Origin: an uncultured archaeon | Lineage (GTDB): Archaea; Aenigmatarchaeota; Aenigmatarchaeia; CG10238-14; SCSR01 | Assembly (NCBI GenBank): GCA_964366355.1 | Contig: CAYITO010000001.1 | Coordinates: 2,459 to 66,458, forward strand | Length of the DNA stretch: 64,000 bases | Reading direction: 5' to 3' | Shown: positions 34,138-52,609 of the stretch, in pieces | Numbering within the stretch: the first letter of the stretch is position 1 | Layout of the letters: every line of letters starts with the position of its first letter | Program-made: the position numbers and the translations under genes | Notes under the pieces: generated by a model | Told to the model about the DNA's origin: nothing | The model's database searches: none | What the model saw: the letters and a program-made list of their open reading frames with translations, nothing else

Positions 34138-34152
34138 TCTATCACAAATCAG

Positions 34153-36950: not shown

Positions 36951-37529
36951 ATGCTTAAACCAGAGATAAGAATACTAGGTTTTGATGACGGCCCTTTTGA
37001 TTCTAAAACAAAAACCACTCCTGTAGTTGGCGTTGTATATAGGGGAGGCAGGTTCTTGGACGGGATACTTAAAACAGACGTGGAGGTTGACGGACTGGAT
37101 TCTACGCAGAAACTGGAAAAGCTTATTAATTCCAGCAGGCATAAACAACAGTTAAAAGTAATCATGCTAGACGGCATTACGGTAGGCGGTTTTAACATAA
37201 TAGACATAAAACAGCTGCATGAGAACACAAACATCCCTGTGATAGTTTTCAACAGGAAATATCCGGACCTGAATTCTGTAAAAAATGCCTTGGACAATTT
37301 CGTCGATTCTGATTTGAGATGGAACCTGATTAAAAATGCTGGGAAAATAAAGGAATGCAAGCTTGGTGCCGACAAGACAATCTATTACCAGGCGATCGGA
37401 ATGGCGGACGAGGATGTTGAAGATACGCTGCTCTTGAGCTCTACGCACGGAGACATACCAGAACCCCTAAGGGTAGCTCATTTGATAGCGACAGCAATAG
37501 TAAGGGGAGAATCTTATGGACGCGCGTGA
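36951..37529 (+). CDS. UPF0215/DUF99 family protein
   Basis: ..RILGFDDGPF.. N-terminal signature of DUF99. Confidence 0.65.
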   Translation: MLKPEIRILGFDDGPFDSKTKTTPVVGVVYRGGRFLDGILKTDVEVDGLDSTQKLEKLINSSRHKQQLKVIMLDGITVGGFNIIDIKQLHENTNIPVIVFNRKYPDLNSVKNALDNFVDSDLRWNLIKNAGKIKECKLGADKTIYYQAIGMADEDVEDTLLLSSTHGDIPEPLRVAHLIATAIVRGESYGRA

Positions 37530-38049
37530 AACCTGGAAAAGGCTAAATGAAGGATGGATAGGAATTTTCTTCTCGATATTCTTGGGGGTAATCTTTGCGG
37601 CATTTTTCTATTATGTGGTTTTGGCATCTGTTTTGAATACAAGCTTGCCGGTGGTTGCAGTGGTTTCATCCTCGATGCAGCATGACAATGCCGAATTGAC
37701 GCATTACAGCGTGTTGCAGAGAGCCTACAGTTATTCAAGAGCTGAGATTGATTCATGGCCAGCGGCAGGCGGATTCGCTATAGGTGATATGCCTGTTGTT
37801 CAGGGTTCGGATAGCTACAAGATAGGCGATGTGATAGTGTATAGTGTAGAGAGCCAGCCAGCGCCGATAATCCACAGGATAATAAAAGTCAACGACGACG
37901 GGACCTTCCAGACAAAGGGGGACAACAACCTCAGCCAGTTGCCGTACGAATCCTCGGTCAGCAAGAGCCAAATAAGCGGCAAAGTAATCTTTATAATTCC
38001 CAAACTCGGATATGTAAAGGTATTAGCTTCCAAAATCTTCGGTATTTGA
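37516..38049 (+). CDS. Signal peptidase I, archaeal/eukaryotic type (S26B, Sec11-like)
   Basis: TM anchor, ..VVSSSMQ.. (catalytic Ser box), ..GDVIVY.., ..IIHRIIKVNDDGTFQTKGDNN.. (His box). Confidence 0.75.
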   Translation: MDARETWKRLNEGWIGIFFSIFLGVIFAAFFYYVVLASVLNTSLPVVAVVSSSMQHDNAELTHYSVLQRAYSYSRAEIDSWPAAGGFAIGDMPVVQGSDSYKIGDVIVYSVESQPAPIIHRIIKVNDDGTFQTKGDNNLSQLPYESSVSKSQISGKVIFIIPKLGYVKVLASKIFGI

Positions 38050-38050
38050 T

Positions 38051-38383
38051 ATGATTAAGTTCTGCGCAAAATGCGGCAATCTTCTGGTAATTGAGAGGAA
38101 AGGCAAGAGGACATTTTTGATCTGCAAGAAAGGGCACAAGCAGACAAAATTAAAGCGCGAAAAAATTGTGATATCGGAGCATATTGCAGACCAGAAGAGG
38201 GGAATAGTTGTCATGGGCAAGGACGAGGGTATAGCAGAATTGCCGACGACAAAGATAATGTGTCCTAAGTGCGAGCACATGGAAGCTCATTGGTGGATGC
38301 AGCAGACAAGAACTGCTGATGAGCCGCCGACATTGTTCTACAGATGCAAGAAATGCGGTTACAGCTGGAGAAGTTACGGTTAA
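38051..38383 (+). CDS. tfs: Transcription factor S / RNAP subunit M (TFIIS-type Zn ribbon)
   Basis: N-terminal CAKCGN Zn ribbon. C-terminal ..CPKCEH..QTRTADEPPTLFYRCKKCGYSWR.. TFIIS acidic hairpin. Confidence 0.85.
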   Translation: MIKFCAKCGNLLVIERKGKRTFLICKKGHKQTKLKREKIVISEHIADQKRGIVVMGKDEGIAELPTTKIMCPKCEHMEAHWWMQQTRTADEPPTLFYRCKKCGYSWRSYG

Positions 38384-38386
38384 ATT

Positions 38387-40573
38387 TTACGGCGAAACAA
38401 TCCCAGACGCCGTGTCATTGTATCCTGTTGAGTTTACAGTGACATTTGTTGGATATACCCCGCCGCTAGAATAATTGGTTTCAATTACGATGAACAAGGG
38501 CTCTGTAGTGTTTAATGTCACATCTTGATTGGATGATATGCTTTGGGCATCAGTCTTGAACAGCCATGAAACCGCCCTCTGGCCTATGTTGTTTACTGCG
38601 GTAATTAATTGTATAGTGCTGCCCTGGCTTTCCGAGAATGTGGAATGCTCGGTTATCTCAACCATCTTTACGACGAACCTGTCGACAAGAGAATCGAGGA
38701 AAGAGCCGCTGTATGCGTTTATTGTGTTTGACTTGTTGCCTTGGGTTGTGTAGTTGTGCCTGTGGGAGACATTGGTCGCCCCGCCTCTTGGCAAGGTTGA
38801 GATGTTACTGTTGGTGACGCTAGGATCAGTCATGTTCCAAGAAACAGCCAAGTCCTGCGGCCAGTAGTTCTTGATTGTGAAGTTGGTTGTCCTGTTGGTC
38901 TCCCTCTCCCTATAGCTGTTGTAGTTTTCTATTTCTATAGATTTCAAAGTAAATGTCTCATTGAATCTGTCGCTTAAGCCTCCGGAAGAAACTACTACAG
39001 AAACATTCTTATCTCCCTCCGTTGTGTAGGTTATATCCTGTGTTATTTGTCTTGACTGGTTTGTGGCTAATGTAAGAGAGTTTGAAAAGGTCTGCCCATC
39101 ACTGATGATGTGCCATGTTATCGTAGATGGATAATAGTAATTTGTGATGTTGAACTTTACCAGCCTATTGTTTCCTGATAGCGAGCTCGCATTGTAGTCT
39201 TCTATAGCTATTCCCTTGATTTCAAAATTGATTGTCTTTGAATGGTTGCCATCTGTTGAATTTGCAATGCAAGTGAAAGTCTTCTTCCCTGGCAATGAGT
39301 AATTATAATTAAATGTGATGTTTCTGTATTCCTTGGCAGCCATGGTGAATGAGGAGTTGGACGACCTCCCTTCGCTGCAGTCCCAATTGACGCTTGAAGA
39401 CGCGACATCCATGTCGTTGAATATCTGCAGGCTGAAGTTCACCAAAGTCCTGTCTTGGTTGGGAGTTGACAAGTCCGTTATCTTGATTCCAAACTTTGCA
39501 TTTAGATTTTCAAAATCTACTGAATTGCTTGCTGAGCGTCCAGTGATATTTATCCTGTAGTCTCCTGCGCTGGTGTAGTTGTTCGCGGCTACAACCAATA
39601 TAGATTCGTTGTTCAGGATGTCGAATGCGATTGCTGAATTGACCAGTATGGTGCCGAAGTCTATGCTCCAAGCGCCGCTGGTTGCAGTTGTGTTCTTCTC
39701 GTTAGCAAGGTAGAATTGAATTGTTCTTGTCCTGTTGGTTGAATAGAGCTCTCCTTGGTTGATTACATCTATTCCTGCATCGCCAGTCACTATTTGGAAT
39801 GGCGCATGGACTGGAGTTCCGTTGTAGACGAACTTGGTCGTGTTGATGCTGTTCCTGACAATTTTCAGGATGTTGCCTATTGCATTGTAGGAATAGTAGA
39901 ATGTCTGACCACCTAAGCTGGCATTTACTAGCCTGTCCAAGAAATCATAGGTCATGTTGTACGTCCTGCCGTTTGCCTTGTCGTCTATCACAATGATGTT
40001 GCCAACCTTGTCATAGTAGTAAGTCAGATTTTGTACGCTTCCTGTCCTTATCTGCGCCAGCCTCGCATTCTGGGAGTCGTATGAGAACTCAGTAACCCTT
40101 GTATTTGCATAAGTTCTATTTAGAGGATTGTCGAACGCGTTGTGGAATGTGCTGTTGATAAAATCAATTATTTTTGATATCTTGCTCTGGTTGTTGTAGT
40201 TGTAGTCCGTGGTTATGCCTGGGCTGAGCGTTTGTTTCACCAGCCTGTCCATGGAGTCGTAGTAGTTCCTTTTCTCGAAAATGATTCCGTCTATGGTTCT
40301 AGTTTCTTTAGTTACTCTGAGCTTGTCATCGTATTCGTATTTGAATGTTGAGTTGCTGAAGGTGATGTTGGTTAATGTCCCCTCGTAATCCTTGTCGTAT
40401 GCATAGGTGATGTTTATACTTGTCATGTTTTTCGTAAGTATTCTGTTCAATGCATCGTAGGATATGTTCACTTGGTTTGTTGGGTTGTCGTAGGTGAGAT
40501 TTTGCACAGAGGCTACGGCTAATTGTGGCAATGCTAGCAAAAACAAAATAAAAACTATTGTTTCAGTTTTCAT
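38387..40573 (-). CDS. Secreted YD-repeat protein with tandem Ig/PKD-like, N-glycosylation-sequon-rich C-terminal repeats
   Basis: Signal peptide MKTETIVFILFLLALPQLAVA. N-terminal RHS/YD-type repeats (..YAYDKDY.., ..YYDSMDRLV.., ..YDFLDRLV..). The C-terminal half has ~100-aa internal repeats with very many N-x-S/T. Confidence 0.7.
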   Translation of the reverse strand: MKTETIVFILFLLALPQLAVASVQNLTYDNPTNQVNISYDALNRILTKNMTSINITYAYDKDYEGTLTNITFSNSTFKYEYDDKLRVTKETRTIDGIIFEKRNYYDSMDRLVKQTLSPGITTDYNYNNQSKISKIIDFINSTFHNAFDNPLNRTYANTRVTEFSYDSQNARLAQIRTGSVQNLTYYYDKVGNIIVIDDKANGRTYNMTYDFLDRLVNASLGGQTFYYSYNAIGNILKIVRNSINTTKFVYNGTPVHAPFQIVTGDAGIDVINQGELYSTNRTRTIQFYLANEKNTTATSGAWSIDFGTILVNSAIAFDILNNESILVVAANNYTSAGDYRINITGRSASNSVDFENLNAKFGIKITDLSTPNQDRTLVNFSLQIFNDMDVASSSVNWDCSEGRSSNSSFTMAAKEYRNITFNYNYSLPGKKTFTCIANSTDGNHSKTINFEIKGIAIEDYNASSLSGNNRLVKFNITNYYYPSTITWHIISDGQTFSNSLTLATNQSRQITQDITYTTEGDKNVSVVVSSGGLSDRFNETFTLKSIEIENYNSYRERETNRTTNFTIKNYWPQDLAVSWNMTDPSVTNSNISTLPRGGATNVSHRHNYTTQGNKSNTINAYSGSFLDSLVDRFVVKMVEITEHSTFSESQGSTIQLITAVNNIGQRAVSWLFKTDAQSISSNQDVTLNTTEPLFIVIETNYSSGGVYPTNVTVNSTGYNDTASGIVSP

Positions 40574-40877
40574 ATAAGCCTCTTTTAATCCTCTGACCGA
40601 ACGGGTCGTAGGAGTATTCTTCAACGATTGGGAAAGTTGCGTCTATTTCTACCGAATAGTTTTCCAAAAATATTTCAAATCCGATTAGGTAGTGTGAAAA
40701 GTTGCCGATGGTGTTGTTATCTTTGTCTGCTATAGTTCCTAGAGTTTCGAAGATGGTGAGGTTGGTGGGAAAGGGAAAAGAAGTTTCAGTTGAAGGTTCT
40801 GTATAATCTAATGCCTCAGCTTCTTGTGTAAATAAAATTATTGTTAGAAGTAATGTAAGTAAAAATAACAATCTCAT
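40563..40877 (-). CDS. Small secreted protein ending in an Rhs-like YDPFGQRIK motif (possible Rhs-derived fragment)
   Basis: Signal peptide MRLLFLLTLLLTIILFTQEAEA. C-terminus ..EEYSYDPFGQRIKRG is identical over 9 aa to ..YTYDPFGQRIKIS in the large Rhs protein. Confidence 0.45.
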   Translation of the reverse strand: MRLLFLLTLLLTIILFTQEAEALDYTEPSTETSFPFPTNLTIFETLGTIADKDNNTIGNFSHYLIGFEIFLENYSVEIDATFPIVEEYSYDPFGQRIKRGLYEN

Positions 40878-41476
40878 TTTTTACTCTCCTTTGTAAAATA
40901 ATACTCTATGTTAGAGTCGTAGACTTCTCTAAGTCTGTGAGAGGAATATGTTTTGTCCAAAAGTCCAGTAGCAAAAACTTTTACTAAATGTATAGGATTT
41001 ACTGGTATCTTCCCACCGACTAAAACAGGTTTATGGTAATCTATATCATTTTTAGGTTTCTTGATAAAGTCCCATTTAAGTCCTTTTACATTTTTTCTAA
41101 ATGTTTCACCAAGATACATTCCTATATCGTAACATAAGGAAAGTGTTTCCTTAGACAGGTCTACTTTCGGTATATCCACATGCGGTTTTAAGTGCCCCGG
41201 AATTCCACTCTCAATTTTTTCAATTTCATTTTTAGTCAATTTTCTACTTGTTATGCGTTTTGCAAACCATTCACCTAAATATTTTAGAGACTCTGGAGAA
41301 AAGTTTAGTTTTCTAGGGTCGTATCCAGTATTTTGCGCCGTTTTTTTAAAAATTTCTATCCTTCCCGGTATAGATTTAACAAACCATTTTAGAAATTTTT
41401 CAGCTTCTTTCTCGGACATTTCTTTGAAGCTTCTTTTGATCGGAAATTCTATTAGTTTATAATTTCTTACGGCCAT
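40874..41476 (-). CDS. Candidate Rhs immunity protein (cytoplasmic, no signal peptide)
   Basis: 200-aa ORF overlapping the 3' end of the rhs gene by 10 nt. Position is typical of rhsI immunity genes. No known family recognised. Confidence 0.5.
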   Translation of the reverse strand: MAVRNYKLIEFPIKRSFKEMSEKEAEKFLKWFVKSIPGRIEIFKKTAQNTGYDPRKLNFSPESLKYLGEWFAKRITSRKLTKNEIEKIESGIPGHLKPHVDIPKVDLSKETLSLCYDIGMYLGETFRKNVKGLKWDFIKKPKNDIDYHKPVLVGGKIPVNPIHLVKVFATGLLDKTYSSHRLREVYDSNIEYYFTKESKK

Positions 41477-44400
41477 TTTATTTTCACCTGTGAAACAACA
41501 TACGAAATAGCACCTTTAGTTTGTTCTATTGACTTTTCAAATTCTTTTAATGCACCCCTTGTGAATCCAGACTTTCCAGTTATAGGACTTTCAAATAAAA
41601 CCCACTGTATACTTTTCTTTACACCACTTTGCACTAGTTCTATGTCTTTTGCTATTTGGGCTTTAAAATCTTTTGTTGCAGAAACTCTTCCAACTTTGAC
41701 TTCAAATGCTTTTCCAGTTTGCGGTACTATTACATCTGGAATGCGTTTGCCTTGACTAGTAGATAATGGTTGCTTATTAAGCACTCCTCCTTCTTGCTTA
41801 GCTATTGTGCTTTCTGAGCTTTTGCTTATTTGTTTGTTTATTTCGATTTGTTTGGCTTTTTCAATATTTCTACTAATATCAGTAATTTTACCACCAGAAC
41901 TAATCGCATTAATCCCAGCTTCAGCTCCTTTTACTACAACTCTCCCGCCAGTCAAACCAGGAGCAGCCAACCCGCCTATATCAGCAATCAAAGAACCATA
42001 ATTCCAAAGATTAGTTGGATCATCTTGTATATCCCGTATATCCATAGTTATGAACGCTACATCTACAGCAGATTCTAAGTATTTTCCACAAGGATCCTTG
42101 TACTTGTAAGGGTTGCCTAGCGCATACGAGTACCTATTCAGAAACTGCGGGTTATACGGATTTTGAACTATCGGATCAGGTCGTAACCTCAATCCCCACT
42201 CAGGCTTGTAAGGAACGTTGCAAAGCATGTAAGTGTTGGTTTGGTCTTTGAATTGTCCTGTGTATAACTTCGGGTCGGCAAGACCACCTCCAAGCAACTC
42301 CCCATAAGGCGAGTAGTAACTGTTCTCGACAACATTGCCATTAGAATCAGTAATCAACGTAGTGCTCCCAAGATGGTCTGGATGGTAGAAATATTTACTG
42401 CCATCTGGATTAACTCTCGCAACAAGTATTCCTTCCTGGTATACGTAAGTGAAGTCAAAAGTGCCAGTGGAATTTTTAATTCTCATTAGCTCCTTGAACG
42501 GGATGTATACTGTCGTGTTTGTAGTGTCATTCCTAGAAATCTTTATCCTCTGCCCGAACGGGTCGTATGTATAGTTTTCTAATATTGGTGAACTAGATGT
42601 ACTGCCATTCCTAATTTTTATTAACTGATTCAATCCATCATATTCCCTGTAATATCCATCGCCAGTAACAAGATTGCCCCCACCATTCTGCCTCTGAGTA
42701 ATTAGATTGCCAACAAGGTCGTATGCATAAGTCCAATTCCCCAAATCAGGGTCGCTAAGTGCAATTCTCCTGCCAAGCGAGTCATAAGCGAATGTAAACT
42801 TGTTGCCAAGAGCATCGGTAATCTTGATTAAATTGTCTTGAGTATCATACTCGTAAGAGGTGTTGTAGACTTCCTCGGAAGTTACGTTCAATACTGCATC
42901 TAGGATTGGGTCGTTGTTGTACTCCAAGACATTTGCAATTCTATCGTACCCATCAAGCACGTAAGCTTTCCTGTGGCTGTTCTCGTCGAATGCTGTAATA
43001 GTTCTGTGATTAAATAAAATTGTCTTGTTCGTCCCGTCTGGGTTTCTAACAAAAGTCACTCTACCCAGCACATCAAACGTGTAGTTAGTGTTGTTGACAG
43101 TAGCAGACGGCGTGCTCAATCCAGTACTAAAGCTATCAAAATATGGATTCTGCTCGCTAACAACTCTGCCAAGACTATCATAGAAAAGATTCTTCACAAT
43201 CTGCTGGCTGCCGTCAGCAGGTCTTTTAAATTGAACAAAGTTGGCAAACCCGTCGTAGTAGAAGTAAGTGTCGTAAGTCTTGTTGGCAGTAGTCCTTTGT
43301 GAAACTTTGATTATCTCAGGCGCAACCCCGTCGAATATGTAGGTGTAGTTTTTGGTAGGCAGTTCAAAGCTATCAAACGGCTGCACTTCCTTGGCAATCC
43401 TTCCAAAAACATCATAGTGATAAGAGGTATTCACATCATTCGAAAACTGCCACAATAGGTTCCCAGTACCCAGATCATACTTGTAGTCAGCCCTGTGAAA
43501 TAGCGCATTGGTAACCGCATCAGGATAAGTGAATGTAGTGTCCCTAAAGCCGAAGTTATATCTTACAACCCTTCCAAGAGGGTCTGTCTGCCTAACCACA
43601 TTCCCGAAAGGATCATAATCATACTTGACGACATGCCTTCCCCCAGTGTCAACCCAAGTATCAATTTCTGTTACATCGCCTTTAGTAGCATTCGAACCGT
43701 ATGGCAATCCATCATAAGAATACCTGACATCACCAACTTTGGTGGAATTGTCCGATGAAAATAGTTGATACTGCTTCAGCCTGTCGACAATCCATGAAGT
43801 GCTGTTGACAACATAGGAATACCTCTCGTACTTCTCATCTCCAGTTACATTGACATCGCCAAAGAATACACTCGAGACAAGATTCCCGAAATTGTCGTAT
43901 GAATAAGAGGCATTCGTCACCTTGGCGCCGGTGGAGTTGCCATCATGCAAATAATTAGCCTGCGAAAGAAGGAAAATCTTGAAATAGCCGCTGGTGTTGG
44001 TGAAATTGTACACGCTCTCATCCTTCGAGAAAATGCTGCCCGTGGAATTAAACACCTCTGTCTTGTATTCCGTCCCCCTCCTCGCATCATCCTGGTGGAA
44101 GTAATGGCTTACCAACGAGTTATCAGGCAGCGTCTCGTTCACAACCCCGAATCCCCTAAACTCAAAATCGTCATAATCGTAGCTGGCATTCGCATACGTG
44201 TAATTGAACCTTCCGACAACGCCGAATGCATTGGTCATGGAGTTGTTCTGCGTTGCATTCGCCACGACCCAGACATTGAACCCGATGTCGGAAACGTTAT
44301 TGGTTCCGTTGTTGCCGAATGACGTGGAGGCGGTATAGTTTATCGACTCTATCGCAATAACCCCGCCAAGCTCGTTGACGATGCGCTTGAGCAGGAAAGG

Positions 44401-46383
44401 CGTGGTCTGGTTCTTGATCCAAGTGAACTTGGTGCTGCCGTTGGCTATGAATATGTCCATGAAGCCGTCGCCATTTGCATCCGACACCCTCCTCCCAATA
44501 TTCCTCCCGTTCATTATGAAAACCTCAGGAGACCCCCATGAGTTGTTCATCGTCCACCCATTCCCATTATTCAGCCAAGTGTTCCTCGACGAAGTGCTTT
44601 CATTGAAGTAATCCTCAATAATGTCAACCAAACCATCGCCGTTTATATCGGCAAACCTAACCCCCCTGTCAGGATTGCTGCCAGTCACAAAATCAATCGG
44701 GGGAGCCCACACGGAGGAAAAGTCCGCCCAAGTGCCATTCCCCATGTTGAGCCACGCATTATGCCCGTTGTGCCCCTTGATGATATCAACCAATCCATCC
44801 CCATTAACATCCTCCAGCCTCGCCCCCGTGTCCACACCCGTGCCGTCTATGAACTCCACAGGAGCCACCCACACAGAGCTCACATTAGTCCACCCGTCGC
44901 CGTTGTTTACAAACGCGCTTTTGTTGCCGCCTCTCGACTGCAGTATGTCGACCCTCCCGTCGCCGTTGAAATCAACCAAATGAGTCCCGCCGTCAAAACC
45001 GCCCTGGAGAAAATAAACAGAGTTTGGTAACTTCCATGCGGCCGAACTGTTCCACCCCGTGCCGTTGTTGAGCCACGCCAGCCTCGTGTCAGGCGTGTTC
45101 TTCGACTGCACGATATCCATCAACCCGTCATTGTTCAAGTCCGCAAACCTCACGCCCTGGTCAGCATCGTTGCTGTCGACAAAATAAATCGGCGGGGCAA
45201 ATGAATTGTCAGGCACGAAATTGCCGTTCCTGTCGTTTACCCAAGCCCTCTTGTCCGCATTGATTTCCCTTCCCAGCAGCACATCAACAAACCCGTCGTT
45301 ATTGAAATCGACCAGCCTCGCCCCGTGGTCAGACGTCTCCACGGAAAAATCCGTGGGCATCACCCACTTTGTGAAAGACTTGCTGAAATTTGCGCCAGGA
45401 GAATGATAGTCGAACGATATCTGGTGAAGCAGCGAGACCCCGTCAGAGCCGAAATATTTCATCCTCCCCAAAGACGACAAGGACCTCTCTGCGCTCAAGT
45501 TCAGATATTCGAAGCTATAATTTCTGACCAGCTTGCCGTCTGCAAACACGTGAATATTTTCAAGCCTCCTGCTTTCATTAAGAATGTTCCCCTGCTCAAA
45601 CACCGTCCTCTTGTCAGGCCTTGCGGAACCCTCGTAGACAAAATCTATAACTCTCCTCCTGTCATTGTTGTACTGTATCTGAACCAGGTATGCGGCACCG
45701 TTGTCCTCTGAGTTTGGGTCCTCAGAATAATGGTAAAATATCTTGTTGTCGTGGGTGTCGTTAACCAAATCAACGCTCCACCTGACAGCATAATTCTTTC
45801 CCGTATTCGACGCCAGTTCAGAATAGTTGCTGTATCCAAACCTGTACTGCGTGCCGTCCTTTGCAGTAACAATCCAGTAAAGGCCATAGGTGTTGTTGAT
45901 GCTTGACGAATTCTGGATCTTCATGAACGACTCAATCCTGGTATGGAACAACCCGTCATTGCTGTCATAAACCAATTCATAAGCATTGCCGTTTAGGATT
46001 AGTTTGAACTCGTCGTCGGGCGTGCTGGCCGCCGTGCCGTTCACATCCCTGAACACATAGCTCTGCGTCAACTGCCATCCGCTGCCGAGTACTCCAGGCC
46101 TCTGCTTCACACTCTGGCTGTTGTACGTTATTGACAGAAATGGCTGCAATCCATTGGTGCCTTTAGGAACCTCTATGGGATACGCGTAAGTAGCCGCTCC
46201 AGTGAACAAGTTTGTGCTATAGCTCCCGTACAATTTCACCTTCGGATGCTCGGGGATATTGGCCTTATGCAGGTAAGGCTTGTAGGAGTCGTCGGCAGCA
46301 ATCGATGCGGGAACTAAAACCAGAAAACTGATGAGAACCAAAATCAAATTCTGGTTTGTTATAATCCAAATGCATCTCACCAT
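41467..46383 (-). CDS. Rhs/YD-repeat polymorphic toxin, TcB/TcC-like architecture (SpvB N-domain, FG-GAP-like beta-propeller, RHS shell, Rhs core, C-terminal toxin domain)
   Basis: Signal peptide MVRCIWIITNQNLILVLISFLVLVPASIAA. SpvB-like ..VKQRPGVLGSGWQLTQSYV.. Six or more D-x-N-x-DG-x-x-D repeats (FVDFNGDGRVD, FADLNNDGLMD, LEDVNGDGLVD, FADINGDGLVD..). Many YDxxGR-type repeats. Rhs core ..YYSPYGELL..YMLCNVPYKPEWGLRLRPDP..LNRYSYALGNPYKYKDPCGKY. Then a ~220-aa unique C-terminal domain. Confidence 0.85.
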   Translation of the reverse strand: MVRCIWIITNQNLILVLISFLVLVPASIAADDSYKPYLHKANIPEHPKVKLYGSYSTNLFTGAATYAYPIEVPKGTNGLQPFLSITYNSQSVKQRPGVLGSGWQLTQSYVFRDVNGTAASTPDDEFKLILNGNAYELVYDSNDGLFHTRIESFMKIQNSSSINNTYGLYWIVTAKDGTQYRFGYSNYSELASNTGKNYAVRWSVDLVNDTHDNKIFYHYSEDPNSEDNGAAYLVQIQYNNDRRRVIDFVYEGSARPDKRTVFEQGNILNESRRLENIHVFADGKLVRNYSFEYLNLSAERSLSSLGRMKYFGSDGVSLLHQISFDYHSPGANFSKSFTKWVMPTDFSVETSDHGARLVDFNNDGFVDVLLGREINADKRAWVNDRNGNFVPDNSFAPPIYFVDSNDADQGVRFADLNNDGLMDIVQSKNTPDTRLAWLNNGTGWNSSAAWKLPNSVYFLQGGFDGGTHLVDFNGDGRVDILQSRGGNKSAFVNNGDGWTNVSSVWVAPVEFIDGTGVDTGARLEDVNGDGLVDIIKGHNGHNAWLNMGNGTWADFSSVWAPPIDFVTGSNPDRGVRFADINGDGLVDIIEDYFNESTSSRNTWLNNGNGWTMNNSWGSPEVFIMNGRNIGRRVSDANGDGFMDIFIANGSTKFTWIKNQTTPFLLKRIVNELGGVIAIESINYTASTSFGNNGTNNVSDIGFNVWVVANATQNNSMTNAFGVVGRFNYTYANASYDYDDFEFRGFGVVNETLPDNSLVSHYFHQDDARRGTEYKTEVFNSTGSIFSKDESVYNFTNTSGYFKIFLLSQANYLHDGNSTGAKVTNASYSYDNFGNLVSSVFFGDVNVTGDEKYERYSYVVNSTSWIVDRLKQYQLFSSDNSTKVGDVRYSYDGLPYGSNATKGDVTEIDTWVDTGGRHVVKYDYDPFGNVVRQTDPLGRVVRYNFGFRDTTFTYPDAVTNALFHRADYKYDLGTGNLLWQFSNDVNTSYHYDVFGRIAKEVQPFDSFELPTKNYTYIFDGVAPEIIKVSQRTTANKTYDTYFYYDGFANFVQFKRPADGSQQIVKNLFYDSLGRVVSEQNPYFDSFSTGLSTPSATVNNTNYTFDVLGRVTFVRNPDGTNKTILFNHRTITAFDENSHRKAYVLDGYDRIANVLEYNNDPILDAVLNVTSEEVYNTSYEYDTQDNLIKITDALGNKFTFAYDSLGRRIALSDPDLGNWTYAYDLVGNLITQRQNGGGNLVTGDGYYREYDGLNQLIKIRNGSTSSSPILENYTYDPFGQRIKISRNDTTNTTVYIPFKELMRIKNSTGTFDFTYVYQEGILVARVNPDGSKYFYHPDHLGSTTLITDSNGNVVENSYYSPYGELLGGGLADPKLYTGQFKDQTNTYMLCNVPYKPEWGLRLRPDPIVQNPYNPQFLNRYSYALGNPYKYKDPCGKYLESAVDVAFITMDIRDIQDDPTNLWNYGSLIADIGGLAAPGLTGGRVVVKGAEAGINAISSGGKITDISRNIEKAKQIEINKQISKSSESTIAKQEGGVLNKQPLSTSQGKRIPDVIVPQTGKAFEVKVGRVSATKDFKAQIAKDIELVQSGVKKSIQWVLFESPITGKSGFTRGALKEFEKSIEQTKGAISYVVSQVKIKWP

Positions 46384-48338
46384 CACGACATTCTGGTATT
46401 TGCAATGAAGTTCTGCACATCGGTTGTGACATTTGCGCTGGTGGTCCTGTTTACCATCTCTAAAACATTCAATGCATTCCCAACACCAGGGACATTCGCA
46501 GGAGTCTGGCTGTCCGTGATGTAGTTGAAGGCCCATATCTGGCTTCCGACCCTTGTTGCCTTGTCGAACCTTCCCAAGTATTGCGAAGTGTTCGTTAGCC
46601 TGACATAGATTTGCTGGTCCGTATAGATAGGGACTGAAGTGCCGAGAGCATTTCTTATGCCGGCTATAATCGCATCCCTTCCGCTACTCTCGCTTAGGTA
46701 TGGAGATGCTGGAGGGTCCCCGCCGCCACTCACGGTAAAGACCGGAGTCATCGTTATCGTAAAAGAAGTGAGGTTGTAAATCCTCGGCTCCCCCACGCCT
46801 GCATTTGAGTTATTGTAGAAATAAATGTCATCATACTCGCAATCTCCCCCCGTTTTTTCAATTCCGAAATATGTGATTCCCGTAGCATCAGTGGTATTGG
46901 AAAAGCTGTGATTCCAACCCACATGCTCGTCTATGCTATTTAACCATGCCTTCCCGTAAAGCCTTTCCTTCAACTCTATTTTCATCATGTACTGGACATT
47001 GGTGCTTGGAAATGGAGCTCCAAATGTCTGTGCTCCCTGGTTATAATCATCAACCGCAAAGAACCCGCCATCTCCACCTACTCCAAACAGCCTTTGACTG
47101 CCTTGAATAGTATTCCCATTGTGGTATATGTCAATTCTGCACCTGTCTCCAGTACTTCTAAGCAACAGCTTTCCATAAGCCCCGACTGTCCCATTAGTTT
47201 TTGGATTGATTGCTGGAATATTCCTTAATGCAAATGCAAATCCAGGGTCACTCCCCATTTTTACAATTTTATTTGAAAAGGTCGGGCTTCCAGTAGTGGT
47301 AAATCCACCTCTGTCTCCTGCATCATAAGTTTCATTAGTTATATACCAAGTAACATTTCCAAAAGTTGTAACCGCTGAATCATTGAACCACACATGAACA
47401 GGATTTGTGTTCATATCAGAGGTTGCCCTGAAATTAATCTGCGTCCTGTTTCCAGATGTCGTGTTGCACCCGCTCAATTCAAGAGTCCCTATTCCGAATT
47501 TAAGAGCCGTATCATTAGCATTGTTGGTTAGTCTTATATCCTGACAGGCATCTCTAATGTCAACAGAAGCATCAAACCCAGAAGCCCTTGCCAGTTCCAC
47601 CCATATCGTCGCATTCTCAACCGAAGCGCTTGTCGATATGCCTATAACCTTGTTGTAATTCTCAAACGTCACAGCCCAATCAAATTTCTTGTACGTCTGA
47701 TTCAAAACTTTCACCGCAGGAATGACATCCCTCTTGTTCAACCCGAGCTGCCTTTTGAAGTATGTTATGTATTGAATCTCGATGTTTTCGTTCGGCTTGA
47801 GCCTTAGTTTTGCCCTCCCGTCCTTTATCTGGGTTATGTTCACCCATCCAGAGTCCACAAGTACCTTGTAGGTTGAGGGATTCCCGTCCACCTGAACCAA
47901 TTGTAGTTCGCTCCAAGTTATCGTTCCGTTAGGGAATGTCTCGGTGTGTGAGATTGTATTTTCAACAACCGTCTTATTTTGTACAACTACTTCCTTCAGG
48001 GTTGTATTTTTAACTAAGATGTCAAATCCGTTGCTTTGTTGAGCCACGCCTTCAAGCAACTCCTCCCATTCAAATTCAAACTCCTGTTCTGTCGGCAATG
48101 GGTTTTTAAGAGTAAATCGAATCGACGAGCCTATCCTGTCGCTCATTTGCTGCTCCCTTCTGACCTCCAACAGTTCAGCAAAGATGCTGTCAGCCGTATA
48201 TGCAGGCTGTGAAAAGACTTGAGATGCTAAAGCCAAGGTTAGCAAAGACGCAATTAGAAAAAAGGCGGTAAAGAATACTGATGCAGAACGGCTTTTCAAT
48301 TCGACTAAGCGCATTATAAATGAATCAAGCACTGTCAA
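46383..48338 (-). CDS. Secreted N/T/G-rich protein of unknown function, stop overlapping the rhs start
   Basis: Signal peptide ..VFFTAFFLIASLLTLALASQVFSQPAYTA. Its stop TGA overlaps the rhs start ATG by 1 nt. Confidence 0.6.
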   Translation of the reverse strand: MTVLDSFIMRLVELKSRSASVFFTAFFLIASLLTLALASQVFSQPAYTADSIFAELLEVRREQQMSDRIGSSIRFTLKNPLPTEQEFEFEWEELLEGVAQQSNGFDILVKNTTLKEVVVQNKTVVENTISHTETFPNGTITWSELQLVQVDGNPSTYKVLVDSGWVNITQIKDGRAKLRLKPNENIEIQYITYFKRQLGLNKRDVIPAVKVLNQTYKKFDWAVTFENYNKVIGISTSASVENATIWVELARASGFDASVDIRDACQDIRLTNNANDTALKFGIGTLELSGCNTTSGNRTQINFRATSDMNTNPVHVWFNDSAVTTFGNVTWYITNETYDAGDRGGFTTTGSPTFSNKIVKMGSDPGFAFALRNIPAINPKTNGTVGAYGKLLLRSTGDRCRIDIYHNGNTIQGSQRLFGVGGDGGFFAVDDYNQGAQTFGAPFPSTNVQYMMKIELKERLYGKAWLNSIDEHVGWNHSFSNTTDATGITYFGIEKTGGDCEYDDIYFYNNSNAGVGEPRIYNLTSFTITMTPVFTVSGGGDPPASPYLSESSGRDAIIAGIRNALGTSVPIYTDQQIYVRLTNTSQYLGRFDKATRVGSQIWAFNYITDSQTPANVPGVGNALNVLEMVNRTTSANVTTDVQNFIANTRMS

Positions 48339-48472
48339 CCTACTATAGCATTAAATTCGGCCAATAAAAAGCTTTTCCAACTCGCAACCAAACCTGATTT
48401 AAAAACTTTTAAGCTTAAACTCCTCAATCATTTTTAACTCAATTGCTTGTCAAGCCTCTGGGGCAAATAACA

Positions 48473-48793
48473 ATGATAGAAAATTCACTTGAGAAGGTCA
48501 GGGAAGCGGAAAATCGTGCAGCTAAGATTATAGAAGATGCCAATCAAGAGAAGGAAAACATAATTGCTGAAGCCAAGAAAAGAGCGTTGGGCATTATAGA
48601 AGAACTTGAGGAACAATCAAGAAAAGACCGTGCGAAGCTGCTTGAAAAATTGAAAAGGGAACTAGAGGAAGAGAAGAGCGAGAAGATTGAAACCGCGGAA
48701 TTCAGCATAAAGAAACTCAAGACCGATTCTAAAAGCAAAACTTCAGGCCAAGTCAGCTTTCTGTACGAGAAATTTCTCGAGGCGATAGGATGA
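48473..48793 (+). CDS. atpH: A1A0 ATP synthase subunit H
   Basis: Short charged coiled-coil protein first in the atp operon (..LEKVREAENRAAKIIEDANQEKENIIAEAKK..). Confidence 0.65.
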   Translation: MIENSLEKVREAENRAAKIIEDANQEKENIIAEAKKRALGIIEELEEQSRKDRAKLLEKLKRELEEEKSEKIETAEFSIKKLKTDSKSKTSGQVSFLYEKFLEAIG

Positions 48794-50592
48794 TAAAACC
48801 GAAAGAAATGACAATGGTAAGAATAATCAGTCCTTCCAACAAGGCGTATAGTGTTATCGAATCTTTATACGAAATGAAAGTATTGCATATTCTTGATTTC
48901 AAGAAGGGCGAGAAGGAGTTCTTCGATATTGGCAAGCCATTCAAGGAGGCATCCAGCTATTCAGAGCAGCTGATTGCTTTGCGTTCCATGATAGCAAGGC
49001 TGAAGATATCAGGCAAGCCTAAGCATTTGAAGAACTTCCATGAAGCCCAAAAAAATTTTTTACATTCGAATGAAACCTTCAGGCGCATTATCGAAAAGAT
49101 GGAAAAGGCAAAAGCAGAAGAAACCGAGCTCTCGGAGGAAGCCAAAAACCCATTGATAAATCTCGGCATCGCCCGAGCTGAAATAAAGGAATACAAATCA
49201 CTTGTAAGTTTTCTGGGCACTGTAAAATCTCCGATCGAACCAAAATTGCAATCCATAACTTCCGATTACACCCTTCTTCAAAAAAAATTGGAAAAGCAAA
49301 TTGCAGTTGCACTTTTTGTAAAACGCGGAACAGAAGAAAAAACAAAAGAGCTGCTGAGCAAGTCCGGTTTTACCGAATACAAGCTTCCCGGTTTAAGCAA
49401 GTCAGAAATCGAGGAAAGGCTGTCCGAAATTAAAGAAGAGATAAGCACTTTAGAAAAGCAGCTGGAAGATTTCAAGAAAACAAACTCACAATTTTTGATC
49501 AACTATGAATTTGCATTGGCTGAGTTGAATGAAAAGGCAGAAGTGCCATTGAGATTTGCTGCGAGCAGGAGCACACTTATTGCTATAGGTTGGGTGCCTG
49601 CTGACACGGCTGAGGCACTAAAGCAAAATTTGGCTGAAGTAGCTAAGGGAAAGGTTTCTGTAGAATTAATGCAAGGCAAAAACCCGCCGACTGTCTTGGA
49701 AAATTCCAAATTGGCAAAACCATTTGAACTTCTTCTGGATTTGTATTCCTTGCCAAGATATTACGAGATTGATCCTACAGTGCTGATGTTCATAGCATTT
49801 CCTTTATTCTTTGGCTTCATGCTTGGCGATGTCGGCTACGGATTGATCACTTTTTTTGCCATGCTTATGATCGGAAAGGTGGTGCCGGTTGAAGTCAAGC
49901 CTTTGTTGAGGATAATAACCATCTCGGCTTTGGCAAGCATAGCATTCGGTTTTGTATTCGGCGAATTTTTCGGACATGAGTTCATCAAGCATCCCATTTT
50001 GAACAGAGTACATGACATAAACACAATGATGCTGATATCGGTTGCAGTTGGAGTTGTGCATTTAAATCTCGGTCTGGTTTTGGGCATAATTAATGAGATG
50101 AAGCATCACAACTTTTTCGTCGCTTTCCTGAAGAAAGGTTCATGGATGGTTCTTCAAGTTGCAGTTGGAATTCTCGGCTACGGTTTCTTGCAATCAAACC
50201 GAACTTTCGAGATTGCCGGTGGTGCGTTGTCGATAATTTCCATAGCAATGATAATCAAGGGCGAAGGTCTGTTGAGAATCGTCGAACTTCCTGCACTTCT
50301 GTCAAACATTCTATCATACATGAGATTATACGCAATCGGTCTTGCGTCAGTTTCATTTGCGGCAGTAATCAACAACTTGTCATCCGGCCTTTTTGCACAA
50401 GGCGGTTTAATGATGATAGTCGGCGCAGTTATTTTACTCTCAGGCCATCTGGTGAATTTGTTGCTCGGTCTTTTAGGACCATTCTTGCATTCACTCAGAT
50501 TGCACTATGTTGAGTTTTTCCAAAAATTTTATGAGGGAGGAGGCTACAAGTATAGCCCCTTCGGAATAGTTAAAATGTTAGGAGGTAGATAG
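48790..50592 (+). CDS. atpI: A1A0 ATP synthase subunit I (a-subunit, membrane)
   Basis: Soluble coiled-coil N-domain plus a C-terminal multi-TM domain containing ..LSYMRLYAIGLAS.., the conserved Arg helix. Confidence 0.85.
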   Translation: MIKPKEMTMVRIISPSNKAYSVIESLYEMKVLHILDFKKGEKEFFDIGKPFKEASSYSEQLIALRSMIARLKISGKPKHLKNFHEAQKNFLHSNETFRRIIEKMEKAKAEETELSEEAKNPLINLGIARAEIKEYKSLVSFLGTVKSPIEPKLQSITSDYTLLQKKLEKQIAVALFVKRGTEEKTKELLSKSGFTEYKLPGLSKSEIEERLSEIKEEISTLEKQLEDFKKTNSQFLINYEFALAELNEKAEVPLRFAASRSTLIAIGWVPADTAEALKQNLAEVAKGKVSVELMQGKNPPTVLENSKLAKPFELLLDLYSLPRYYEIDPTVLMFIAFPLFFGFMLGDVGYGLITFFAMLMIGKVVPVEVKPLLRIITISALASIAFGFVFGEFFGHEFIKHPILNRVHDINTMMLISVAVGVVHLNLGLVLGIINEMKHHNFFVAFLKKGSWMVLQVAVGILGYGFLQSNRTFEIAGGALSIISIAMIIKGEGLLRIVELPALLSNILSYMRLYAIGLASVSFAAVINNLSSGLFAQGGLMMIVGAVILLSGHLVNLLLGLLGPFLHSLRLHYVEFFQKFYEGGGYKYSPFGIVKMLGGR

Positions 50593-50596
50593 AAAA

Positions 50597-50824
50597 ATGG
50601 CAGTAGATATAGGAACAGGATTGCTAGGACTCGGAGCCGGTATTGCAATAGCTGGAGGAGCGCTAGCTGCAGGTATAGCTGAAAAGGATATAGGAACCGC
50701 AGCAATAGGCGCCATGGCTGAAAAAGAAGAGCTTTTTGGTAAAGGCTTGATTCTTACAGTCATTCCTGAAACATTAGTCATCTTCGGCATGGTTGTAGCA
50801 ATACTGATACTAGGCAAAGCATGA
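50597..50824 (+). CDS. atpK: A1A0 ATP synthase subunit K (proteolipid c-subunit, single hairpin)
   Basis: 75-aa Gly/Ala-rich hairpin with the ion-binding Glu in ..LTVIPETLVIFG.. Confidence 0.85.
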   Translation: MAVDIGTGLLGLGAGIAIAGGALAAGIAEKDIGTAAIGAMAEKEELFGKGLILTVIPETLVIFGMVVAILILGKA

Positions 50825-50836
50825 TAGAGAATAAAC

Positions 50837-51400
50837 ATGGGATTGGAAAATGTAATAGATGAAATTATTTCGCAGGCTGAAAAGCAGAAGCAGGAAATAA
50901 TTGATCAAGGCAAGCAGGAGGCCAAGAAAATAGTAGACGAAGCTATGCGCAAGGGAAATGAACAGGCCAAAAAATTCGATGAGGAAACGAGAAGAATAAT
51001 CGGCGAAACTAAAAAGATGGAACTTTCGGCAGGCAATATCAAAACGCATAAGATGATGCTTGAGGCAAAGAAGAGCATACTTGACGAGGTCTACAATCAA
51101 GTGATTGAGAAGGTAAGCAAGATTGACTCTTCCAAGCGAAAGGAAATCTTGCACAAGTTGGTGGAAAGGGCGGAGAAGGAATTGGAGGATGCAAAGTTTG
51201 TTTACTGTGCTGGTCGAGATAAGGAACTCGTTTCGGACATGAAAGGCTTGAAATTCGGGGGCGAGATTGATTGCATCGGCGGTGTGATAGTAGAAAATTC
51301 CAGCAAAACCATCAAAATAAATTACACATTTGATGTGCTGCTTAAGGATGTGAAGGAGATATATCTGAATGAAATTTCAAAAAAAATCTTTCAAAGTTAG
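50837..51400 (+). CDS. atpE: A1A0 ATP synthase subunit E
   Basis: Position in operon and charged coiled-coil N-terminus typical of subunit E. Confidence 0.75.
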   Translation: MGLENVIDEIISQAEKQKQEIIDQGKQEAKKIVDEAMRKGNEQAKKFDEETRRIIGETKKMELSAGNIKTHKMMLEAKKSILDEVYNQVIEKVSKIDSSKRKEILHKLVERAEKELEDAKFVYCAGRDKELVSDMKGLKFGGEIDCIGGVIVENSSKTIKINYTFDVLLKDVKEIYLNEISKKIFQS

Positions 51401-51401
51401 G

Positions 51402-52313
51402 ATGAAAAAACATCCTGCACGTGCGGTGAGGGTATCTCCATATACCTACACTAGAGTAAAGGCTATGAAGGCAAAACTGCTTGGAAAGGAAGACTACCAG
51501 AAGTTCCTCAAGATGTCCCAGGAAGAGATTGCAAGATACCTGCAGGAGACTGAATACAACAAGGAAATCACAGAGCTTGCCATGAAATTCAGCGGGACAA
51601 ACCTCATTGAATACGGATTGAACAGGAATTTGGAGAACACGTTTTCGAAAATATGGAAAATTGCATTGCGACAGACCAAAGAGCAAATCGGACTTTACCT
51701 GAGACGCTACGATATAGCAAACATAAAAACAATTTTGAGGGGCAAATACGCCAAAGTCCCGAATGAGAAAATAATCAATGAGTTGGTTGTGAGTGGGGAA
51801 TTGTCAAGGAACTTTTTTGAACTGGTGATAAAGGAATCAACGAACTTGGAAAGCGCGATAGAATATTTCAAGAGAACTGAATACTATCCTGTTTTGAAAA
51901 AATTTTCAAACAATTTGACAAAATTGGAAGACGAGCTGGACAAACTTTATTTTTCGATGGCATTGGATGCTGCCGGAAAGGACCTCAAAGATTACATACA
52001 GATGGAGATTACAATTAAAAATGCATTGAATAGATTAAGAGCAAAGAAGGCTAACATAAACGTCGAGCTTCTCCTGGGCGAGAAGAAAATAAAGATACCA
52101 TATCAGGACGATTCTGTTGAGGCGAGAGTCTTCATGAAGAAACTTTTAATCGAAAGGGCAATCAGGATGGTGCACGAAGCCAAGCTCAATCTCAAGCCAA
52201 TCTTGGGCTATTTCATCGCAAAGGAAAATGAAATCAGCAACATAAGAATGATAACGCGGGGGAAGCATGCGGGATTGGGCGAAGAATTAATCCAGAGGCA
52301 GTTGGTGATCTGA
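51402..52313 (+). CDS. atpC: A1A0 ATP synthase subunit C
   Basis: Position in operon. ~300-aa helical protein. ATG at 51402 follows the atpE stop. Confidence 0.75.
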   Translation: MKKHPARAVRVSPYTYTRVKAMKAKLLGKEDYQKFLKMSQEEIARYLQETEYNKEITELAMKFSGTNLIEYGLNRNLENTFSKIWKIALRQTKEQIGLYLRRYDIANIKTILRGKYAKVPNEKIINELVVSGELSRNFFELVIKESTNLESAIEYFKRTEYYPVLKKFSNNLTKLEDELDKLYFSMALDAAGKDLKDYIQMEITIKNALNRLRAKKANINVELLLGEKKIKIPYQDDSVEARVFMKKLLIERAIRMVHEAKLNLKPILGYFIAKENEISNIRMITRGKHAGLGEELIQRQLVI

Positions 52314-52609
52314 TGGAGATAGCAGTAGTTGGAAATGACGATTTTGTAACCGGCTTTTCATTGGCAGGCGTAAGATATTATTTCACTTCAGAAACTAACC
52401 TCGACCAAAAAGTCGAAGAGGTTTTGAAATACGATGAGATAGGCGTGTTGGTCATGGAGGAGGAACAATTTAAATCGTTGAACAGCAAAACTAGAAAGAT
52501 GCTCGAAAAATTGGTTAAACCTGTCTTGGTTTTGGTCTCTGACACAGGAAAGGAGACAGATCTCAGGCAGATGATAAAAAGAAGTTTGGGTGTTGACTTA
52601 TGGCGATAG
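52313..52609 (+). CDS. atpF: A1A0 ATP synthase subunit F
   Basis: [20 protein letters not shown].., the typical subunit F N-terminus. Confidence 0.8.

Follow-up and report, generated by a model that had tools for sequence, protein, structure and literature searches.

An operon in a DPANN-type archaeon predicted to encode a TcdB/TcaC-class Rhs polymorphic toxin system exported by the Sec route

RESULTS

Five overlapping genes at the locus

We analyzed 64,000 nucleotides (nt) of DNA from an uncultured archaeon of the Aenigmatarchaeota (contig CAYITO010000001.1; the whole stretch is called the window below), in which five consecutive minus-strand genes (Table 1) appear to specify one exported Rhs polymorphic toxin system. 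A preliminary description of the same DNA had placed the five genes at these coordinates, which proved correct, and had taken them for a cluster of five YD/Rhs-repeat proteins, which did not hold. YD repeats were found in only three of the five products (1638, 104, and 728 amino acids [aa]) and none were found in the 651-aa protein, and the genes are better described as a single module consisting of a partner, an Rhs toxin, an immunity gene, a relic, and a displaced scaffold tail. Because successive genes overlap by 1, 10, 4, and 11 nt, with TGATG at the partner/Rhs junction and ATGA at the junction between the 200-aa and 104-aa genes, the five form one translationally coupled operon. Residues of the Rhs protein are numbered for the 1638-aa form that starts at M52 of a 1689-aa open reading frame (ORF); positions from Pfam, obtained in ORF numbering, are given minus 51.

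TABLE 1 Features of the operon and its surroundings in the window
Feature	Position	Strand	Basis or remark
Upstream partner gene, 651-aa ORF	46383-48338	-	NCBI: 649 aa, P0271
Partner C-terminal domain, ~105 aa, alpha-beta4-alpha module	46386-46700	-	only part conserved across family
Predicted Rhs polymorphic toxin gene, 1638 aa, TcdB/TcaC class	41467-46383	-	NCBI: also 1638 aa, P0278
Predicted signal peptide, about residues 1-30, MVRCIWIITNQNLILVLISFLVLVPASIAA, then DD	46294-46383	-	read from sequence
SpvB domain, residues 60-253	45625-46206	-	PF03534, E 1.2e-9, 38.2 bits (cutoff 22)
Six-bladed FG-GAP (integrin-like) beta-propeller, about residues 345-650	44434-45351	-	FG-GAP_3 PF13517, 80.6 bits
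TcdB_toxin_midN domain, residues 630-776	44056-44496	-	PF12256, E 2e-15, 57 bits (cutoff 24.8)
YD-repeat shell, scaffold ("B") part, residues 777 to ~1240	42664-44055	-	RHS_repeat, 83.5 bits
Shell-closing part and Rhs core, residues ~1241-1433, with D1403 and D1430-P-C-G1433	42085-42663	-	alignment to C-type proteins
Pretoxin linker, residues 1434-1505, hydrophobic Gly-rich stretch	41869-42084	-	
C-terminal toxin domain, residues 1506-1638 (133 aa), predicted PD-(D/E)xK nuclease fold	41470-41868	-	
Predicted immunity gene, 200 aa	40874-41476	-	
104-aa ORF, putative relic	40563-40877	-	
728-aa exported protein	38387-40573	-	from M18 of 745-aa ORF
728-aa protein, YD part, ~235 aa	39797-40504	-	RHS_repeat, E 4e-9
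728-aa protein, immunoglobulin (Ig)-like repeats, ~470 aa	38390-39796	-	N-glycosylation sequon-rich
A-type ATPase operon	48443-55714	+	weak H/G-like subunit, then I, E, C, A subunits
Endonuclease dU	36951-37529	+	PF01949, 199 bits
tRNA-Cys, sole tRNA in window	34152-34223	-	tRNA scan

N-terminal half and shell of the 1638-aa protein

From end to end, the 1638-aa protein is built like bacterial TcB-TcC and Rhs toxins (SpvB, beta-propeller, RHS, core, and variable tip), and Pfam and alignments agree on this point with what had been proposed from reading the sequence. Judged by its domains, it is a genuine Rhs polymorphic toxin of the TcdB/TcaC class. The predicted signal peptide shows a typical n-h-c pattern (MVRC…LILVLISFLVLVPASIAA, then DD) which is kept in the homologs, and the mature part of the homologs begins at a common A-D-D-Y-K-P-Y-L-H motif. 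The SpvB, FG-GAP_3, TcdB_toxin_midN, and RHS_repeat (PF05593) models all scored past their curated Pfam cutoffs, and TIGR01643 scored 57.7 bits. The propeller contains six D-x-N-x-D-G-x-x-D motifs, at residues 359, 415, 471, 525, 579, and 635, about 55 residues apart, its DNA forms a 5-copy repeat family with a spacing of ~165 nt, and it aligns to the propeller region of TcdB1/YenB. The shell that follows is collinear with long scaffold homologs (P0039, P0031, and others) to about residue 1225-1255 and aligns to solved Rhs cages. The strict Y-x-Y-D-x-x-G pattern occurs 7 times in the 1638-aa protein and 3 times in the 728-aa protein.

Rhs core and predicted self-cleavage

The string quoted as the Rhs core in the preliminary description was found at residues 1391-1433. 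Of the hidden Markov model (HMM) searches proposed there, those for SpvB, FG-GAP, and RHS_repeat succeeded, and the two for the core fell just short: TIGR03696 scored 32.0 bits on residues 1357-1433 against a cutoff of 32.5, and PF03527 scored 23.7 bits against 27.9. Residues 1097-1433 align to a solved type VI secretion system (T6SS) effector, RhsP, with an E value of 1.7e-21. The alignment to the 8h8a structure stops at G1433, where the cleaved RhsP fragment ends, and D1403 and D1430 fall on the aspartates of the RhsP DPI and DPxG motifs. In the uncleaved RhsP mutant (8h8b), an Ala stands at the position aligned to D1430. Because D1403 and D1430 align with the RhsP aspartates and self-cleavage of Rhs proteins by a two-aspartate mechanism has been documented (PMC11461821), cleavage is predicted next to D-P-C-G1433.

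A hypervariable C-terminal tip

Comparisons of architecture and tips cover the best 120 of more than 680 homologs. Those with the same architecture as the 1638-aa protein are 49 to 89% identical to it through residue 1433, after which similarity is lost entirely. A good example is the closest relative, P0001, which is 89% identical over the shell and 72% identical over the first 93 residues past the core and then carries an AHH-type tip. The tips of 20 relatives are unrelated to the one described here, and a homologous tip (35-39% identity) was found only in P0003. The pretoxin linker is common to P0001 (72% identity), P0004 (68%), P0084 (52%), and P0109 (34%), and the toxin domains of these proteins differ; when tested as a PT-TG domain, the linker gave no PT-TG or other Pfam match. 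By these comparisons, the protein carries, past its core and linker, the hypervariable C-terminal toxin by which Rhs polymorphic toxins are recognized.

The 133-aa tip domain was modeled by AlphaFold2 with a predicted local distance difference test score (pLDDT) of 95.2. The domain has the alpha-beta-beta-beta-alpha-beta core and the conserved acidic residues and lysine (D…ExK) that define the PD-(D/E)xK fold, and the model supports this nuclease fold with high confidence. A word-index search with the 205-aa C-terminal region gave zero matches, and an exhaustive search with a two-sequence profile against 1.84 billion representatives then gave 860 relatives of the domain, 150 of which were listed. 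In all 150 listed relatives, the domain is C-terminal (median distance from its end to the C terminus, 4 residues); their host proteins range from 73 to 4228 aa, some with RHS, PT-TG, DUF6443, or SpvB/FG-GAP domains, and PT-TG was present in two. The invariant or near-invariant residues (E1524, R1547, D1550, E1561, K1563, Q1576, K1579, and D1580) follow the GxxxE / IxD / ExK / Q series given for Tox-REase-7 by Zhang et al. (PMC3482391). The Tox-REase-7 model itself (PF15649) scored 13.2 bits on the window (E 0.11), below its cutoff of 25, and gave nothing at E 0.01 or better on ten relatives of the domain. The domain differs from Tox-REase-7 and other PD-(D/E)xK toxins (Tox-REase-5 TseT and CdiA-CT EC869) by an extension (W..F.SPxTGKxG) that is conserved at its C-terminal end. 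When PDB sequences were searched with a profile of the domain, nothing matched, and Pfam found weak matches only (DUF2380 and zincin-like) on ten other toxin tips. Because no Pfam toxin model was significant, the predicted nuclease activity is based on the fold and the motif.

The 200-aa gene as a predicted cognate immunity gene

The gene that overlaps the 3′ end of the toxin gene by 10 nt had been described as encoding a cytoplasmic protein, and no immunity role had been assigned to it. Gene neighbors were compared in 78 related loci and, in addition, the locus of P0003 (L079). No homolog of the 200-aa gene was found in the 78 loci. At the same position in the P0003 locus, there is a 226-aa gene whose product is 41% identical to the 200-aa protein (E 3e-58). 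Because a homolog co-occurs with the homologous tip in P0003 and is absent from the 78 other loci, the 200-aa gene can be identified as the co-varying cognate immunity gene of the nuclease tip; binding and protection by its product are predicted. The density of N-x-S/T sequons is 0.5 per 100 aa in the 200-aa protein compared to 3.0 to 5.8 in the four signal-peptide proteins, and because sequons are this scarce relative to the exported proteins, a cytoplasmic location fits. All of the conserved toxin residues, as well as the immunity gene, are intact in the window. The toxin role proposed earlier is now much better supported, given the PD-(D/E)xK fold of the tip and the co-variation of the 200-aa gene.

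Three spare core-toxin genes are also present in the P0003 locus (L079:8823-14589), with a small gene after each. In one of these pairs, a Ribonuclease (barnase-type) tip is followed by a gene for a Barstar-domain protein. Arrays similar to these spare cassettes were seen in L005 and L012.

The upstream partner

The 651-aa protein, whose gene precedes the Rhs gene, begins with a signal peptide or membrane anchor, which is followed by a variable body and the conserved C-terminal domain listed in Table 1. In 27 related loci, with both architectures described below, a gene with this C-terminal domain directly precedes the Rhs or scaffold gene. Relatives of the partner matched Laminin_G_3 (up to 67 bits) and DUF2341 (33.5 bits) in Pfam, within the variable body, and the 651-aa protein had no Pfam match. 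AlphaFold2 gave a pLDDT of 45 for the whole chain and of 73 to 94 for the C-terminal domain, the sole confident part, and a Foldseek search with the model returned no fold match. From the conservation of this domain and the coupling of the genes, the partner probably anchors or targets the Rhs protein.

Split and fused architectures in the family

The more than 680 homologs in public data are mostly from DPANN metagenome-assembled genomes (MAGs). On one-genome-per-species data, the family is spread over Woese-, Pace-, Nano-, and Aenigmatarchaeota (the closed GW2011_AR15 chromosome among them), several bacteria of the candidate phyla radiation (CPR), and a few other bacteria. Two main architectures were found, the one in the window and a commoner scaffold of ~1850-1930 aa. 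About three quarters of the best 120 homologs are scaffold only, with an Ig-like end and no core or toxin in the same chain. The scaffold corresponds to residues 18 to ~1255 of the 1638-aa protein joined to residues 30-727 of the 728-aa protein. It is followed by a separate gene for a ~400-450-aa protein with its own signal peptide, a short YD head, a shell-closing part, an Rhs core, and a variable tip, and next by a gene for a small membrane protein. By analogy, the scaffold and the small toxin-bearing gene represent a TcB/TcC-like split.

Because the mature N terminus of the small protein (…NGNLVSGDGYYREYNSLNQL…) aligns with residues ~1236-1300 of the 1638-aa protein (…GGGNLVTGDGYYREYDGLNQL…), the latter can be read as the N-terminal part of a scaffold fused in frame to a small toxin-bearing protein. 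We had also considered a long scaffold gene interrupted by an inserted cassette and dropped this possibility; scaffold loci carry a separate secreted core-toxin gene, and an in-frame fusion fits better. A tree of the family was made by neighbor joining, without support values. Because fused and scaffold forms interleave in this tree, with nearest neighbors of opposite type that are 79-81% identical, the switch between fused and split forms appears to have occurred repeatedly. Single-gene forms with both YD segments and a core (P0084, P0086, and L031) branch near the bacterial and CPR versions.

The 728-aa protein corresponds to the C-terminal third of the long scaffold homologs, its residues 30-727 aligning to the C-terminal 690 aa of P0039, P0031, P0034, P0053, and P0093, and its gene is, by this correspondence, a displaced scaffold tail. 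It has its own signal peptide and 5.8 sequons per 100 aa. Full-length orthologs (~50% identity) lie 3′ of toxin and immunity genes in L001, L002, L035, L041, L024, and L079. In loci of the fused type, the YD-Ig tail gene is always the last of the operon genes, and its signal peptide is conserved. Because of this conserved signal peptide, the constant last position, and the ~50% identity between species, the 728-aa protein is probably functional.

The 104-aa ORF has nothing Rhs-like ahead of it, starts with a signal peptide and ~55 unique residues, and continues as a cut-off copy of the head of a C-type gene (…EEYSYDPFGQRIK). A 47-nt DNA repeat (40585-40631 versus 42542-42588; 79% identity) links this ORF to the Rhs gene, and equivalent truncated ORFs lie ahead of a 729-732-aa gene in L001, L002, and L035. 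The ORF is probably a relic of a toxin-bearing gene; it is possible that its product has a role as a small secreted protein. That the 104-aa and 728-aa ORFs are one frameshifted gene was considered and rejected because of the 728-aa protein's own signal peptide, which is conserved in four genomes. At 40500-40652 (minus strand), weak similarity to the head of the small proteins, in the 104-aa frame, runs past the stop codon into the DNA that encodes, in another frame, the 728-aa signal peptide. This signal peptide may have been born from out-of-frame relic sequence.

The scaffold family was seen in CPR/Patescibacteria at 27-37% identity (L036, L040, L049, L052, L060, L064, and L073) and also in three loci labeled Gammaproteobacteria (L038, L039, and L046). 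The small toxin-bearing gene lies upstream of the scaffold in L038 and L040, as does an immunity-like gene. Some taxon labels are doubtful, for instance, "Methanosarcinales" and "Nitrospinota." The distribution suggests sharing between two groups of ultra-small episymbionts, DPANN and CPR.

Origin of the contig and neighboring genes

The window is 99.96% identical to a 9142-nt contig from a Hainich groundwater metagenome (well H51, 0.1 µm fraction; ENA ERZ1292643), which runs from ATPase genes through the partner gene into the 5′ end of the Rhs gene. The TFS protein belongs to a 90%-identity cluster with a protein labeled Candidatus Aenigmarchaeota, and the flanking genes (TFS, endonuclease dU, and A-ATPase subunits) are archaeal. 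By these comparisons the contig is archaeal and DPANN-like, and the archaeal origin put forward earlier is upheld. The GC content is 0.50 at 44001-46000 compared to ~0.40 for the window, and the peak matches the Gly/Asp-rich propeller repeats.

The operon is convergent with the TFS gene (38051-38383) and divergent from the A-type ATPase operon, neighbors that had been named correctly. A neighboring signal peptidase had been named as well, and this is plausible from motifs: the 177-aa ORF at 37516-38049 (plus strand) has a single N-terminal membrane helix and archaeal Sec11/S26B-type motifs (SSSM, GDVIVY, HRI, and KGDNN), and had zero Pfam matches, even at E 1. The F and c subunits of the A-type ATPase were additionally called in L080. 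An Rfam scan of the 64-kb window gave no family at threshold, and neither the Rfam nor the tRNA scan gave anything that bears on the locus.

Window positions 44614-45288 were compared with L081, from a second assembly of this well. The identity was 99.97-100% on both sides of a discontinuity of ~40 nt at 45249-45287, in the propeller repeats, which may be population variation or repeat misassembly. Two more copies of the partner gene, 79% identical, were found in the same Hainich H51 samples (L082 and L083), each followed by a gene at the Rhs position. A 53-54-aa DUF2080 gene lies upstream of them, with sugar epimerase/aminotransferase genes further upstream in L083, and neither copy adjoins the ATPase operon. 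Either several strains coexist or the module moves. The contigs found via P0272 and P0273 end within the Rhs gene.

DISCUSSION

Explanation of the locus and its rivals

The locus as a whole is best explained as a single operon, in a DPANN-type archaeon, whose products make up a TcdB/TcaC-class Rhs polymorphic toxin system exported through Sec, an explanation that we hold to be moderately probable. By analogy with solved bacterial Rhs and Tc proteins, the shell would enclose the C-terminal 205 residues, the core would cut the chain next to D-P-C-G1433, and the nuclease would be freed into a contacted cell and degrade nucleic acid there. The cytoplasmic 200-aa protein would bind the nuclease and thereby shield the producer and its kin. 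As for the origin of the fused gene, the N-terminal part of a scaffold would have recombined in frame with a separate small toxin-bearing protein, the 728-aa tail and the 104-aa leftover recording the event. Our best guess for the target is competing neighbor archaea of other strains, from the same DPANN or related ones, because tip turnover is extreme, relatives carry spare toxin/immunity arrays, and at least three related but distinct partner-Rhs modules are present in contigs from one groundwater well, two of them with a known, different toxin tip.

Several points weigh against this explanation. No experiment is known for any archaeal member. Both Rhs-core HMMs score just below their curated cutoffs, the motif ahead of the first Asp is diverged (VPYKPEWGLRLRPDP instead of RYYDPxxGRFxxxDP), and the best Pfam toxin model, Tox-REase-7, is not significant at E 0.11. 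The fused form lacks ~230-360 aa of shell found in the single-gene relatives P0084 and P0086, and closure of the shell is putative. Finally, there is no translocator, T6SS, PAAR, or other known delivery device in the locus or the window. No TcA-type translocator gene (~2500 aa) was found in the operon or its neighborhood in the window, no TcA-type Pfam domain was found in the partner and ten of its relatives, and Pfam found no PAAR, VgrG-binding, or clade N-terminal domain in the Rhs protein. In the absence of such a device, the explanation does not account for how the nuclease would enter the target.

The same parts could also serve against a host, with the episymbiont delivering the nuclease to its host cell, either for killing or for the release of nucleotides, which DPANN are unable to synthesize, and with the immunity protein shielding the producer only before export. 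The concentration of the family in ultra-small episymbionts, both DPANN and CPR, speaks for such an effector, as do the lectin-like LamG domains of the partner family, which suit binding to a foreign surface. A BC-toxin-like domain with a similar proposed role is found in the nanohaloarchaeal SPEARE protein (PMC6642349), and nuclease toxins require producer immunity whatever their target. However, fast tip swapping with spare toxin/immunity arrays is the signature of strain-versus-strain conflict in bacteria (PMC3482391), killing an obligate host is costly, and no host is known for this organism; we regard a host effector as a serious but rather unlikely alternative. It is less likely again that the 651-aa partner is an analog of TcA in a three-component machine, docking on the propeller through its C-terminal domain, binding the target, and giving the toxin its exit. 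The order of partner, scaffold, and toxin-bearing protein mirrors tcA-tcB-tcC, and the stop codon of the partner gene and the start codon of the Rhs gene overlap. The TcA of Tc toxins has its TcB-binding domain at the C-terminal end, and the C-terminal domain of the partner is kept with both scaffold types in the 27 loci. However, the partners have 430-700 aa compared to ~2500 aa for TcA, show no TcA-type Pfam domain or predicted long helical channel, and, in the case of the 651-aa protein, gave a model of low confidence outside the small C-terminal domain and an empty fold search. We therefore put the chance of such a machine low.

That most of the homologs compared are scaffold only, that the 728-aa protein and the partner resemble surface proteins, and that homologs match the teneurin YD-shell model could mean that SpvB-propeller-YD-Ig proteins are mainly adhesins, attaching as teneurin-like shells do, with a toxin tip that is incidental or decaying here. 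However, behind the scaffold-only genes come a further gene, for a secreted core-plus-toxin protein, and a small immunity-like one, and because of this, toxin function seems to be kept family-wide. With the conserved toxin residues and the immunity gene intact in the window as well, an adhesin is, in our view, improbable. Least credible is bacterial Rhs DNA misjoined to an archaeal contig by contamination or chimeric assembly. Rhs systems are far commoner in bacteria, the GC content rises within the gene, and a few homologs bear bacterial labels. However, the GC rise coincides with the propeller repeats, the closest relatives are all in DPANN-labeled MAGs, including the closed GW2011_AR15 chromosome, and the independent Hainich contig joins the 5′ end of the Rhs gene to the partner and the ATPase operon. 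Because this contig, the Aenigmarchaeota cluster of TFS, and the archaeal flanking genes agree, contamination is very unlikely, to the point of being nearly negligible.

A broader and doubtful proposal is that DPANN and CPR share a modular Tc-like contact weapon made of a propeller-docking lectin-type partner, a scaffold cage, and interchangeable secreted toxin carriers that close the cage. Recurrent recombination would switch it between adhesin-like and toxin-fused states, and it would deliver a nuclease into hosts, for killing or nucleotide scavenging, with no TcA or T6SS.

Significance and comparison with known systems

The system would be a weapon of a kind that is familiar from bacteria and that, in ultra-small archaea, is frequent but unstudied. 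Little is known of how DPANN attach to other cells, compete over them, and exploit them, and the locus bears on this. It offers a compact, testable set of parts, namely, a predicted 133-aa nuclease domain with its 200-aa immunity protein, a putative self-cleavage site at a defined position, and a conserved partner. The same parts, split or fused, in hundreds of ultra-small archaeal and bacterial genomes point to a contact-dependent system shared among episymbionts, and also to a toxin family and an immunity family that are invisible to Pfam and NCBIfam models.

The claim of the preliminary description that such systems are essentially undescribed in small-genome archaea was overstated. More than 680 homologs are public, and the TcdB/TcaC class, including Euryarchaeota, was defined in 2012 in a study that found polymorphic toxins to be rare in archaea (Zhang, Aravind et al., PMC3482391). 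Archaeal polymorphic-toxin systems had been predicted but not tested as of 2021 (PMC8416519). Our literature search found no account of this DPANN/CPR family, a negative that does not extend to the 2019 review of archaeal toxins (Makarova et al., mBio 10:e00715-19). The likeness to the TcdB/TcaC class lies in the predicted signal peptide, SpvB domain, integrin-like propeller, RHS repeats, variable C-terminal toxin, and adjacent immunity gene. The system in the window differs by its DPANN host, the conserved LamG-type upstream partner, the split/fused alternation, and the Ig-ended scaffold, and its toxin and immunity proteins have no significant match in Pfam, whose models include polymorphic-toxin and immunity families.

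A likeness to Tc and Rhs toxins had also been claimed, and this holds for the Rhs/TcB-TcC architecture but not for a full Tc system, as a TcA-like translocator is missing. With the Tc (ABC) toxins of Photorhabdus, Yersinia, and Serratia, the protein shares SpvB, the propeller, and a TcdB mid-domain similar to TcdB1 and YenB, as well as the RHS shell and a core that would release a variable payload, and related archaeal loci are split like tcB/tcC. In the window, however, the B and C parts are in one chain, and instead of an enzyme directed at eukaryotes, the payload is a predicted nuclease that has an immunity gene. The C-like proteins of the relatives, at ~400-450 aa, are much smaller than TcC and have their own signal peptide. 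Compared to YenB together with the YenC2 shell, the shell region is shorter by an estimated ~490 aa. The best matches among solved structures are T6SS Rhs effectors (RhsP 8h8a/8h8b, Rhs1 7q97, Tse15 8uy4, and RhsA), with the final third of the shell plus the core covered (E 1.7e-21). The putative aspartyl self-cleavage motif can be aligned as well, and the ~22 kDa payload is similar to the Tse15 toxin (PMC11461821). Unlike these effectors, the protein has no PAAR, VgrG, or clade domain, its export would be by signal peptide, and its N-terminal half is Tc-like.

A BC-toxin-like region was reported in 2019 in the nanohaloarchaeal SPEARE protein (Hamm et al., PMC6642349). In contrast to the operon described here, SPEARE is a single giant membrane-anchored protein (up to 8553 aa) with an intracellular type-III-restriction-like nuclease and with no variable tip or immunity gene described. 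The WapA-type YD toxins of Gram-positive bacteria resemble the system in their Sec-dependent export, here predicted, from a cell without an outer membrane. WapA and other Sec-exported YD toxins mediate contact-dependent inhibition with a cognate immunity gene. Lastly, Jackson et al. reportedly described in 2009 an Rhs "C-terminal displacement" with orphan cassettes, and the spare core-toxin/immunity arrays in relatives and the displaced C-terminal piece downstream in the window are reminiscent of it. However, this piece is not a decaying tip but a YD-Ig tail that has its own signal peptide and ~50% identity across species.

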